From the NCBI GenBank assembly GCA_951406725.2, contig OX597819.1, positions 99,696,001 to 99,760,000 on the forward strand: DNA of 64,000 nt, given 5' to 3'. Shown here piece by piece: positions 32,788 through 45,800 of this stretch. Under the pieces are notes generated by a model. It was not told where the DNA came from, searched no databases, and saw only the letters and a program-made list of their open reading frames with translations. The stretch comes from Octopus vulgaris. Taxonomy: Eukaryota. Positions within the stretch are counted from its first letter, which is position 1. Every line of letters starts with the position of its first letter. The position numbers were made by a program, and so were the translations under genes.

Positions 32788-33174
32788 ACAATCATAGTTG
32801 TCGCCGAGAATTAGATTTCCTTCACTTTGAATACTTATACTTTTTCCAGCGTCCACTGTCGCTGATATTGAAAAAGTGAAATCAAACAATGATAAATATC
32901 AAAGTGAGTTATATACAGTAGCGGTAACACATCGTGAACTCGAGTCCGTGTGTATCATAAGTTGAAGACGGGAAGGATGACTTCCCTTTGCAAATACTGA
33001 CAGGACACAGATAGTGTGTCTATGGCCAGCTGGAGGAGTGTGTCCTCCTGGGGCTAAAAACTACAGTAGCATCCACTCTTAGGGGTTAGCCATATTGAAA
33101 TGGCAAAAATACGTCACTATATATATATATATATTTATAATAACGTCACTATATATATATATATATTTATATAT

Positions 33175-35090
33175 AACGGGAAGCTTTATGAAAATAGACA
33201 AAAGACGAAGGCAGGTGGAAAACAAACAAACAATTGTATTAGTATGGCGCTCAGGAAATATAAATAAAACAAGTCTTTAACGATTCGAGCCTACGCTCTT
33301 CAACAGAAAGATACACAGAGAGAAAAAAAACACAGAAAGAAGGAGAGAAAAAAATGCGTGCAGTAACTAACGAATCAACATGGCGATCTGACTTCGGCCA
33401 GAGGTCAAAGATCAAACATGAGACGCGAGAGCGAAATAAGGGGAGATAATAGGGTTGATAATAGGGTTGAATGACCCTAGGATAGGTCTGGACAGGTGTA
33501 TGTATGGGGTTGGTGTATGTATTAGTATGTATTAGTATGTATTAGTACGTATTAGTATGTATAAGTGTGTGTGTATGAGAGAGTATAAGTGCGTATGAGG
33601 GGTCTGGACGTGTGTATGTATAGGGTTGGTGTATGTATTAGTATGTATTAGTACGTATTAGTATGTATTAGTTAGTGTATGTATTAGTATGGAACATCAT
33701 ATAGGATGTGATGTGTAAAGTCGTGTGGTGTAGTGAGGAGAAGAGGGGGAGGGGGAGAAGAGGGGGAGAAGGGGAGGGGAAGAAGAGAGGGGAAGAGGAG
33801 AGGAGGGGGGGAGAGGAGGGGAGAAGGAAGGGGAGGAAAGAGGGGGAGAGGGAGAGAGAAGGGGAGTGAGGGAGCAGAGGGAAGAGGGAAGGAGGGAGGG
33901 AGAAAGAGGGAAGAAGGGAAGGGGAGTAGGTGTGAAAGGATGAAGGACTGAAGAAGTAGGGGTCGGGGGGAAGGATAGGTGAGGAGGGGGAGAGGGGGGT
34001 TAGATGAGGAGGTGGGGAGAGTTGAGACCAAATGGCGTATAAGAGCGAAGAGAGAAGATTAATTCCTGTTCACGGCGCAAACGTGAATCCGGATGGCCTC
34101 TGTGTAAGGACAAACCGAACACAGATAGGTGTTGCAAGGAGTGACCGGTGGAGCGGAAATGGCGTGAGACCGGTGTGCCGTTCGCAAGGTGGATGTCACG
34201 AAAGTGTTCCGCGAACCGGTCAGCCAAGCGGCGTCCCGTTTGTCCGATGTACAAGGAATTGCAGAGAGAGCAAGAGATGCAATAGATAATATTGCTGGAG
34301 GTGCAGGTGAAGGAGTGGATGATGGGATAGGGTCGATGGTGGGTGTTAGTGAGGCGGGTGGTGTTGGAGAGGTAAGGGCAAGTGCGGCAACGTGGGCGGG
34401 AGCAGGGGAACGAGCCGGGTTGGGAGGTAGGGTCAGGGAAGGAGCTATGGACCAAAAGGTCTCGAAGGTTGTGGGCTCGTTTGAAAGAGGGGAGGGGTCG
34501 GTTAGGGAAGAGGTGTGAAGTGGACGGGTCGGACTGGAGATGACGTAGGGTCGTGGGGTGGTAAGTGAGGGGAAAAGGGAGGCGGGAGACTACAGGGCGG
34601 GTTCGGGGAGAGAGAGCAGATACACGGTCCACGGACCGTGCTCTGGCAAGGGCGGTGTGTATAGTGGTGAGGGGGTATCCACGTAGGGTGAAGTGGTGAG
34701 CCATACGTTGAGACTGAGTCTCAAAGTCATGGTCGTCACTACAGAGCCTACGTAGACGTAGGAATTGGGAATAGGGGATGGAAAGCTTGGTGTGTTCTGG
34801 GTGGGAGGAAGAGAAGTTGAGGTATGAGTGTGAGTCTGTGTGTTTGTAGTGAATGGAGGTGGTAAGAGTGGAGTGAAGAATGCTAACCGAAATGTCGAGG
34901 AAGGAGACAGAGGTGTTGGAGATAGTGGAAGTGAAGTGGAGGGCTGGATGGAAAGATTGGACGAAAGAGAGGAAGGAATCTAGATGTTCACGGGAGAGTG
35001 AGGTGGCACCGATAATGTCGTCAATGTAACGACCATATAGTTCAGGAGTGGGACCAGTGAAATTAGAGAATATTTGGGCCTCAACATATG
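33175..35090 (-). mobile_element. 5'-truncated Penelope-like element (Neptune-like) with long 3' region
   Basis: RT plus GIY-YIG ORF, a pyrimidine-rich and tandem-repeat 3' region, and a degenerate hammerhead-like motif CTGTTGA-agagcgtaggctc-GAAT at ~33273-33310 (related remnant at ~43375-43450 +). Confidence 0.88.
34000..35090 (-). CDS. Penelope-like RT C-terminal half, Cys-rich linker and GIY-YIG endonuclease (5'-truncated, open)
   Basis: YGRYIDDII, VSFLDI, SSSHP, CSRPRCRTC, NIIYCISCSLCNSLYIGQTGRRLADRFAEH, PFGLN. Confidence 0.9.
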
Positions 35091-42800: not shown

Positions 42801-45800
42801 CACACTTGTTAGCACATTAACACACTTCCACCCTCATACTTACACATATACACATGACCATAAGCGCGCACACACTCAGAAATACAAATACGCAAGACGA
42901 ACATCACTCCACACAACTTGTACAATAGGTTACTTGTACACATACACACCCCCAGGCCAATTCGTTTGTACATACACATGATGACCGCACACATACATAC
43001 AGTTTCAAATGCTCACATGCATACATACCAGTACATGTAACGCATATCACTCCACATGATGTACTCACTGGGTCACTTACACACATACTCATACACACTG
43101 AGATCCACATATTTTTCAGCTCGTTCACACATACATAGTCACAGACTCATCCCCATTCATAGATACAATCCACAGACATACATTCACTATTTTCACATAA
43201 GCAAGCGCGCACGAGAGCGAATTTGTTCAACCAGGTCACTGTTATTATCTCCCTTTCATTCAGTCTCTTTCTTCTGGCTATTTCGTCGTGTGAACCGTTA
43301 ACCCCTACACATATTTTTTCTCTCTCCGTTTTATTTTCTTCTTTTCAATCTCTCATTTTTTTCACCTCAATTTTTTTTGTCGAAGAGCGTTGGCTCGAAA
43401 AGTAAAGAAGACTATCACAACTGCTTGTTGTTCCTACACCTGTCTTTGAATTTTGCGTTCTGTAAATCTGAATTATATATATATCCGCATCACCAAACTT
43501 GTATAACACTATCAAAACAAAATTTGCCAATCATGAAACAAAGTGAAAAGTCAATAAACAGAATATCTAAACAAAGACCGCAAGCAAAAGGCAACCACAC
43601 CTAAAGAAACTATTACCAGAAGCAATATACACCATAAAACATTCACAGCATCCAAGTGTAATGATAATATATGTGGAACGTGTCAATGCATGCAAACTGA
43701 TAGATCCATTAGAACAAGAAATGGACTCATTTTCACAAACGTAGATATGAACTGCAGAAGCAGAAATTTCATCTACTGCTTTAAATGCCCTGATGGTTAC
43801 CCCTTTTATATTAATAACACCAATGACGACGACAACATCTCCCTATTTTTCTTATTGTTACCTGATGTATGGTATATCAGCTAAAACATGATATTTTGAT
43901 CCGGGATCAAAGTCTGATTCTGTACGTTGCAATGGGGGATGGATGCCTTGGTAGTCATATCTGAAACACAATTACAAATATATGTCTGAAATATATATAT
44001 GGTAGTCACAACAGTATGGAGTAAGTCCTTTGAAACAAACATATTCAGGACAGTATACAGGACAATATACATCAAATATAAATGAACAACACGTCCCTCA
44101 AGAGTGCTCTTAGTTTTATTAATAACATAGATAGACAAACACTAATACGTAAGAAAACTTGGACATGCACATTTAAGTATTGATAGACAGAAATATGACC
44201 ACTTGCAAATATCATGATAGTCAATTACAATGGATGTAGTCCTCACATACAGTAATAAACCTTAAGTAAAATCCCATTACATTTAGTGCATAAAGCCACA
44301 TGCAGTCTTTCAGAAATACATACAAGCGCAATGATATAGCAACAAATATTAATGAGAAGAGAAATAAGGTTATCAAGAAGAATGTATAAAACTACGTTAC
44401 AATTATTTATTGAGATCAATAGCTAAGTTCATATATATATAAAAATATTATACCAAAATTAAATATTTAAAAAATGCACTGAATGAAGAAGGCAGATTTC
44501 ATTGATTGATATACAGAACAAAGTTTAGCTTAGCATAGCTCTTGCAGCTTACATTGGAGTATCAGATAACGAGGAATCTCCATCCAACATAGACAGAAAC
44601 CCTCATATGAACGTACTCATATTCAAGGTCCATATCAGCTAGGTCATCCTCCACCATTTTCAACCAGATGTTGACAGGTACATGGCATCCCTTGCGTCAA
44701 TTTCCAGTCGATTGTTTGCATAGTGTGCACATGGCTTAGGCTCGTACAGGTCTCTTTGTGGTAATGCATATCACGCGACTAAGTATTTCCATCTTCTTGT
44801 AAACGTGTAAACCAAAAATCAATTTCTGAAGACTTTAAATTTCCTCCACAATAATCGCACCATTATTATGTGTTCTGCAGTTTCAAAATGTAGCAAACAT
44901 AGCAGACTCAAAAATAAGTTACCAGCTGGATTCTCTATCTACGTAAGCTATGTAAAATATATGAATTTACACAGATAATACACAATATGTTCTTACCTCA
45001 TTTTCCACCATGCTTGAGTATAATTAGTAGAACTGATATCTCCTTGATATACGCGCCATCTCCATTTCTCAAGAAGATAAGCAAATATCATTGTAGGAAT
45101 CTTGTCCAGAGCCTCACGCATTAATAGGTTGATATTTCTTTCTTAAAATATCAAAACAGTATTAGAATTATTCAAAATGTATTAAATATTAACGACAGAA
45201 CTTGGTTATGTGTGTGCATGTATGTGTGTGCGAGCGTGCACGTGTGTTTGTATGTTTGTATGTATATGCATATATACGTGTATGTATGTGTGTGTATGTT
45301 GGAATGCTGGTCAACCCACAAGGCCAGTGGGGTATTCAAAACTTACAACAATGAGTGGGGGCACACTGTGACTAGCGGTGTATTGCGCCACCACCGCTCA
45401 TGTCTCTTTGAGACATTTAGAAATTTAATATTTCTAATTACGGTGACCAGTGAATAGATTTCACGGTAAATATATATATCTGCGAAGGCTAGACAGGCAT
45501 CTCGACCAGCAGGTCTCACTATCCTGGGCTGATGACGGGTTAAGACCCAGAAACATGCATGTCCTCAGGTGTGAATCCTAGCTGGTGGGGGTGCTTGCCT
45601 TCCCTTCGCAAATATAAGGACACAGGAAATGTGTCAAAGCCGACAGGAAGCGTCGATGCTTACTAGGGCTAAACAGCGGTGGTGTAAATCCCTTACGGGA
45701 CTGTCACGTTATGTTGACAGTATACAACCACTCTATCGCTCCACCACCGCTCATGTCTCTTTGAGACATTTAGAAATTTAATATTTCTAATATATATATA

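Follow-up and report, generated by a model that had tools for sequence, protein, structure and literature searches.

Two families of small dispersed repeats, F1 and F2, lie in a 64,000-nucleotide (nt) stretch of the Octopus vulgaris genome (assembly GCA_951406725.2, contig OX597819.1, positions 99,696,001 to 99,760,000, forward strand; the whole stretch is hereafter the window). We are confident that their clade consists of non-LTR retrozymes (LTR: long terminal repeat), and, outside the hammerhead ribozyme, its members have in common a predicted multi-branched RNA fold that, judging from its substitutions, has very probably been kept by selection on pairing. Moreover, we consider it somewhat probable that this fold positions a Penelope-type reverse transcriptase (RT), as a landing and measuring device that would set two internal start sites (coordinates in Table 1).

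A clade of retrozyme families

An earlier note, made from the letters of the window alone, had claimed that the two families have the same unit length, which is indeed the case: Tandem Repeats Finder (TRF) gives a period of 353 for F1 (4.2 copies), while the terminal repeat of F2 at 45389 reappears at 45742, i.e., again 353 nt. Their global alignment scores 213, against 87 ± 11 for 200 shuffles, and their identity is 0.60–0.64, hence F1 and F2 are homologues. No stop-free frame of 100 amino acids was found inside either array, and one low-complexity frame overlaps the 5′ edge of F2. The motifs listed in the note all occur at the positions it gave, with two corrections: the long stem cannot be read in the copy offered as the sense view of family 1, as that inverted arm (32947-33120) ends before the 3′ strand of the stem, which is readable only in the array, and several of the letters quoted for F2, although correctly placed, are private to the window copy.

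Copies of F1 are 98–100% identical and those of F2 about 88–96% (40 scored in each case among 2398 and 2279 first-look candidates, respectively, numbers that are not copy numbers). A pattern of shared motifs, built to skip typical F1 and F2, gave 71 matches, against 0 in the reversed control, and led to the families F3, F4, F5 and F6, after which a covariance model from 15 copies (model R1) found a further family, F8 (1777 candidates), within the window itself. F1 and F2 are thus members of a clade that comprises at least seven families in one genome, with pairwise identities of 0.60–0.77. F2c and F7, for which copies were too scarce (the consensus of F2c merged with that of F2a), were left out of the consensus set, and the F5 consensus is thinly covered, with 4 pieces over part of its length, and has probably inherited a deletion from its seed. 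The domain pattern had no match in viral contigs; its single match in a metagenome contig was rejected as chance, being located inside an apparent bacterial gene and without model match.

Each of the nine consensus units has the hammerhead core motif, in which core positions 3 and 8 vary (U-A in F8, U-G in F6, mixed in F3), a variation that we take to fit the known 3-8 pair of hammerheads; as far as sequences can tell, these covariants suggest selection on catalysis. Against Rfam RF00163, the four F1 motifs score 30.5–32.2 bits, under the gathering score of 34, while the F2 motif, which has a C-A mismatch at the base of stem II throughout the family, is unreported by Rfam at E ≤ 5 and was identified by motif pattern. 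Contigs from four sequencing runs cover the F1 unit and self-close, as would be expected from a circle or a tandem array alike, and closed 383-nt contigs in two presumed-RNA runs are equally compatible with either. Finally, near-identical F1 sequences occur in 20 sequencing-run rows with nine organism labels from 11 studies, which would fit closely related species, wrongly labelled or mixed samples, or horizontal spread alike.

A covarying fold outside the hammerhead

The domain is closed by a long-range basal helix (P0) and includes the GACACA hairpin (P1), the GCC arm (P2), the long stem (P3), helices P4 to P7 and the hairpin P8. Each family, when folded alone, yields the same order of helices (z of −6.5 and −4.4 for the window copies), the hairpin P7 being absent in F1 and F6. 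Invariant unpaired letters are few: the 4x3 internal loop of P2, the UAA after P2 and the UU in the P5 loop. As the F2 window copy amounts to 1.16 units with a single hammerhead, its P0 forms only in a circle or a multimer.

That a covarying multi-branched fold exists outside the hammerhead, as the earlier note had suspected, is supported by four lines of evidence. First, once genomic copies had been gathered along the lines of that note, RNAalifold recovered its helices from a sequence-only MAFFT alignment of 15 of them, with 31 pairs corresponding to P1, P2, P3, P4 and P5, of which 11 show two-sided changes. Second, the named structure pairs 92.9% of the 480 cells of this alignment, against 86.4% after shuffling (none of 500 as high) and 34–49% in slid controls, and 13 of the 32 named pairs change on both sides, which was matched in 4 of 500 shuffles. 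Third, in a structure-anchored table of the nine consensus units, 389 of 405 cells are paired over 45 pairs including P0 and P8 (P4, P6 and P7 were excluded because their register varies), with two-sided changes in 25 of the 45; P0, which spans about 230 nt, covaries too, even among subfamilies of F2, whereas P1 shows no two-sided change. On the sense strand, this table counts 11 G-U versus 2 A-C (p 0.02 if independent). Fourth, F8, which was not used to define the helices, retains 43 of the 45 pairs and alters four of the 20 that were invariant until then, always on both sides.

Under a stricter design (structure taken from one family, pairwise alignment), double changes exceed expectation in 10 of 13 comparisons, e.g., 15 versus 7.7 expected from F1 to F2 (p 0.0003). 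The stem replacement with retained pairing that the note had called wholesale is nevertheless partial, since between F1 and F2a 32 of the 45 pairs are identical and eight have changed on both sides while remaining paired (four of them in P3); two others are kept after a one-sided change and three are unpaired in one family. As to a match with a described motif, on which the note had made the novelty of the domain depend, Rfam yielded none over it, either at gathering score (window and six loci) or at E ≤ 5, and in the window, at E ≤ 5, only the hammerhead and microsatellite noise. Readings as an internal ribosome entry site (IRES), a selenocysteine insertion sequence (SECIS), a hepatitis delta virus (HDV)-like ribozyme or an RNA polymerase III (Pol III) promoter, judged by eye, found no support.

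Two insertion ends at fixed distances from the fold

The 3′ ends of the copies fall into two clusters (in unit positions numbered from the predicted hammerhead cut), which we call site 1 and site 2. With a full-unit query, 18 of 32 distinct F1 ends lie at 174 and 10 at 216–220; for F2, at least 9 of 54 lie at 172–173 and 32 at 225–231, and for F8 19 of 49 at 177–179 and another 19 at 232–239, proportions that are biased inasmuch as the queries for F2–F8 stopped near a site. Matching clusters are observed in F3, F4, F5 and F6. Many ends run into TA repeats, which they overlap by 1–3 nt, while other A/U stretches seldom serve as ends. Among 99 distinct two-armed insertions, 71 combine site 1 with site 2, only two use the same site twice (one for each site), and 26 have an end outside the site windows; the two arms of one insertion tend to share a haplotype.

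These two fixed 3′ ends, together with the tail, the inverted truncated arm and the TA-microsatellite target, are Penelope-type insertion marks. Indeed, Penelope insertions are described, in the available part of the literature, as having a tail at one end, an inverted truncated arm and a microsatellite bias (bioRxiv 10.1101/2021.04.23.441226), and an Anolis Penelope as having two internal RT start sites on its RNA, with the tail as the stretch between them, and a protein that is a predicted dimer and both cuts and extends the two strands (PMC11167929, accessible sections).

In each of the seven families, site 1 sits 14–17 nt past P5, on an invariant U or next to it, and 5–7 nt before the 3′ strand of P3, even though the linker that holds it is only 49% identical across families. 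Site 2, contained in the segment from P3 to P8, is shifted by about 12 nt towards the 5′ side in F1 and F6, the families without P7. In the seven families, P5 measures 18 nt, the linker 22 nt (21 in F8) and the P3-to-P8 segment 50 nt, whereas neighbouring segments vary (4–7, 5–7, 3–5, 28–31, 6–8, 16–20 and 10–18 nt); the 99-nt stretch around both ends, from P5 to P8, is thus constant within 1 nt. In real copies, the modal spans are 46 (45 in F8) and 53 nt in all families, against 83–88 and 36–43 nt for the flanking spans.

Penelope-like elements as candidate helpers

Next to the F1 arms lies PLE1, a Penelope-like element of a young and very large family (24,698 candidates, 98–99% identity, long open frames), copies of which end in TA tracts. 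Against Pfam, it has no match at E ≤ 0.001, GIY-YIG being below the cut-off with an E-value of 0.0012. Its pseudo-long terminal repeat (pLTR) contains a minimal variant of the hammerhead, one core position of which is U. PLE1 was rejected as a sequence donor of the retrozyme, its pLTR being dissimilar and without match to model R1.

In two of 20 F6 loci, site 1 directly adjoins the pLTR of PLE1 without a TA tract, the two junctions lying within a few bases of each other, which fits either template jumping by the RT, from the RNA of PLE1 to the start site of the retrozyme, or an insertion at a residual TA. At another locus (L003:465-2137), a young F1 arm stands head to head with a 98%-identical, 5′-truncated copy of a second young family, PLE2, and could be a mixed two-armed insertion by one enzyme. 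The partnership of the retrozymes with a Penelope helper is putative, PLE1 being a candidate.

Three further loci deserve mention. In L159, an F4 piece is joined to an older pLTR at a position other than the two sites, with a short overlap. In the 3′ flank of L257 lies a short hammerhead element, the 3′ portion of which reproduces the terminal sequence of PLE2; it is apparently a parasite that imitates its helper in sequence, unlike the present clade. L135, considered as a Penelope frame with the unit as its pLTR, was rejected, being interrupted by another repeat.

Table 1. Retrozyme copies, RNA features and associated Penelope-like sequences (window positions, except for the two F6 loci)
Feature	Position	Strand	Remarks
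F1 tandem arm	31460..32937	-	about 4.2 units; 3′ end at unit position 220 (site 2, with tail); 5′ truncation at unit position 168
F1 inverted arm	32947..33120	+	unit positions 1-174 and part of hammerhead stem III; 3′ end = site 1, into (TA)n
F1 type I hammerhead motif, one of four	32027..32071 (others 31674-31718, 32380-32424, 32743-32787)	-	palindromic stem III; predicted cut after GUC
F1 domain, one intact unit	32105..32345	-	closed by P0 (32336-32345 with 32105-32114)
F1 helices inside domain	P1 32312-32328; P2 32278-32307; P3 32261-32269 with 32196-32204; P5 32227-32244; P8 32128-32145	-	mapped from unit positions
F1 22-nt linker, P5 to P3 3′ strand	32205..32226	-	contains site 1 (32212)
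F1 50-nt tail segment, P3 to P8	32146..32195	-	contains site 2 (32166-32169)
F2 copy	45381..45791	+	unit positions 171-353 then 1-228; 3′ end = site 2, into (TA)n
F2 type I hammerhead motif	45523..45569	+	core from 45529; predicted cut 45563/45564; palindromic stem III
F2 domain	45605..45750	+	P0 5′ arm 45605-45614, partner 45477-45486 in preceding unit
F2 helices in domain	P1 45619-45635; P2 45639-45669; P3 45676-45684 with 45742-45750; P5 45702-45719	+	
F2 linker	45720-45741	+	site 1 near 45734-45736
F8 two-armed copy, third family of the clade in the window	12661..12915	.	minus arm ends at site 2, plus arm near site 1; model R1 57.9 + 19.2 bits
PLE1, 5′-truncated Penelope-like element	33178..35151	-	RT + GIY-YIG frame 34000-35151; pLTR ends in the TA tract common to the F1 arm; not part of the retrozyme
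F6-PLE1 pLTR junctions	L188 near 1195; L196 near 1064	minus	

What the fold may do

For the second RNA domain, the earlier note had offered RT recruitment along with ligation, polymerase or protein binding, and other catalysis. Only the first of these, taken to mean recruitment or positioning, is positively supported, by the location of the fixed insertion ends within the fold and immediately behind it; nothing supports ligation or other catalysis. In the mechanism that we propose, tandem arrays would be transcribed and the hammerhead, perhaps as a dimer given its palindromic stem III, would free monomers of 353 nt for circularisation by a ligase of the host, with cutting and circle formation resembling those of mussel and coral (PMC7229834). 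The fold would be bound by a Penelope RT-endonuclease dimer, which would nick a TA tract on both strands. Of the two nicked ends, one would prime synthesis at site 1, on the U of the 22-nt linker, and its counterpart at site 2, within the tail segment, and copying round the circle would produce arms of up to about six units, head to head. A more specific version is tentative, and we would not call it probable: the retrozyme would possess a structured template cassette of its own that has no sequence relationship to the pLTR of its helper and whose fixed-length scaffold offers two start sites to both active sites of a dimeric Penelope RT, one circle being written into both cut strands by this telomerase-RNA-like device.

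A number of results speak against a selected fold that positions the RT. With respect to the fold, the strict comparison from F1 to F2 leaves 16 of 32 changed pairs still paired where 12.1 are expected (p 0.09), and changed pairs stay paired at p < 0.05 in just 4 of 13 such comparisons. RNAalifold on 11 long, partly decayed and misregistered copies finds only 14 pairs, the shuffles ignore relatedness while all families share ancestry in one genome, from which all the evidence comes, and most families were recovered with a pattern drawn from the fold itself. With respect to positioning, the site windows were chosen after the ends had been seen, and the unit as a whole is also fairly constant in length (337–361 nt across families). 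Moreover, model R1 has no match in eight PLE1 and 12 PLE2 loci, i.e., in two young autonomous families without the fold, and both 3′ ends of PLE2 lie in a U-rich stretch devoid of it, which implies that two start sites need no such fold. Finally, among 197 retrozyme loci with 1.5-kb flanks, none has a Penelope frame leading into the unit as its pLTR; a search for F1-to-PLE1 junctions returned 0, and a general chimera pattern, which would miss both known F6 cases, gave six matches versus one in the control, none with a model match.

The most serious alternative, albeit an unlikely one in our view, is that the fold serves the life of the RNA circle (nuclease resistance, a quiet hammerhead, or the binding of a ligase, an export protein or a packaging protein of the host), and that the RT just primes at exposed A/U stretches that match the TA primer by a few bases. 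Such a role would agree with the description of animal retrozyme circles as highly self-paired (PMC7229834, available part), with the rod outside the domain, which is also paired in each family despite low sequence identity, with the short TA overlaps and the two fold-less ends of PLE2, and with the location of the best-conserved helices, P1 and P2, 60–110 nt away from site 1. Yet stability alone accounts neither for lengths that are fixed at the start sites while their neighbours vary, nor for the 71-to-2 rule of the two-armed insertions, and priming at exposed A/U sits poorly with the rarity of ends in other A/U stretches.

It is improbable that the unit is an escaped pLTR of an unsampled autonomous Penelope family, the fold being the start signal of that family. 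Of the 57 retrozyme families of Xenopus, 24 have matches to known elements, almost all of them Penelope termini (bioRxiv 10.64898/2026.07.22.740005, accessible text), and one annotation of an octopus, as given in the available part of PMC13282606, lists about 30 recently active Penelope families, two of which were examined here. Against this origin stand the 0 of 197 loci with a Penelope frame running into the unit and the pLTRs of PLE1 and PLE2, which are unlike it.

We give very little credence to a DNA-level origin of the pairing, be it the correction of palindromes between the two arms or a promoter whose binding site is an inverted repeat. The arms of P1 are indeed invariant and palindromic, and the antisense folding energy is near that of the sense strand in three of six families, but the excess of G-U over A-C on the sense strand, the covariation of helices spanning 60 and 230 nt and the variable spacer of P1 (5–7 nt) all argue for RNA. 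Besides, T runs are a bar to multimeric Pol III transcripts, and runs of 4–5 T in five of the seven families disfavour such transcripts. Least probable of all is a second ribozyme, either ligase or nuclease: the unpaired invariant letters listed above could hint at one, but they are few, Rfam matches no ribozyme except the hammerhead, and retrozyme circularisation is credited to protein ligases (PMC7229834, sections available).

Other features of the window

Another two-armed hammerhead element (35089-36291) has a very long stem II, a core near 35853 (+) and 102-nt inverted ends; it sits at the 5′ break of PLE1 and, having no match to model R1, belongs to a different clade. Isolated hammerhead-core-like matches occur at 843-860 (+) and 22811-22831 (-). 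Tandem arrays of a common repeat, which we take to be SINE-like (SINE: short interspersed nuclear element), extend over 25191-25651 (period of about 184) and 52931-53842 (period of about 364).

Comparison with known systems

The earlier note had seen here the best candidate for an undescribed system, but this is a non-LTR retrozyme with Penelope-type insertion marks, and both are already in print. Retrozymes and their link to Penelope have been published (PMC7229834; bioRxiv 10.64898/2026.07.22.740005, available parts), and, as in the metazoan non-LTR retrozymes of these papers, we find tandem non-coding units of about 350 nt, each with one type I hammerhead and highly self-paired, in a host genome with Penelope elements, where rolling-circle copying has been proposed. 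The dispersed units, in many copies, have a size (353 nt) within the 150–400 nt range of non-LTR retrozymes. In the same sections, published retrozymes are given single-sequence energy folds and their sequences are called species-specific, whereas a covarying domain, fixed RT start sites and a spacing rule are not among the features reported there. Unlike Xenopus retrozymes, the clade has no sequence link to the pLTRs sampled.

With Penelope-like elements, as described in the accessible parts of bioRxiv 10.1101/2021.04.23.441226 and PMC11167929, the clade shares two start sites with a tail between them, an inverted 5′-truncated arm, microsatellite targets and a hammerhead upstream of the start sites. 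In contrast to them, it encodes no protein (neither RT nor GIY-YIG), its tail is 45–60 nt rather than 30–40 nt long, its start sites lie in a multi-branched covarying domain instead of a single AC-rich stem-loop, and its ends overlap the TA target by 1–3 nt, unlike those of the Penelope-like elements compared.

Within the available text of the literature searched, neither a covarying non-ribozyme domain of an animal retrozyme nor a fixed spacing around Penelope start sites is described, and the main text of the octopus repeat paper (PMC13282606), in its accessible part, mentions neither ribozymes nor retrozymes. What is new relative to that literature is the conserved fold and its fixed geometry, on a known retrozyme and Penelope background. 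The sole in-vitro Penelope study maps the start sites and, in the sections available, not their RNA determinant (PMC11167929), and the Penelope RT is the sister of telomerase RT (bioRxiv 10.1101/2021.04.23.441226, available part).

The clade hence bears on the question of how Penelope RTs, the closest kin of telomerase, pick internal start sites, and of how retrozymes hijack them. It makes this question directly testable, as it offers a 250-nt natural substrate in seven diverged versions, with ready compensatory pairs and a predicted spacing rule. If correct, our reading would account for the tail and the mirrored insertions, and provide a compact handle for rolling-circle RNA-templated DNA writing. 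In the template domain of telomerase RNA and in the 3′ untranslated region (UTR) of R2, a structured RNA presents a single-stranded template to the RT at a set distance from a helix; the likeness of our fold to these two RNAs, without an Rfam match here, is one of logic only.

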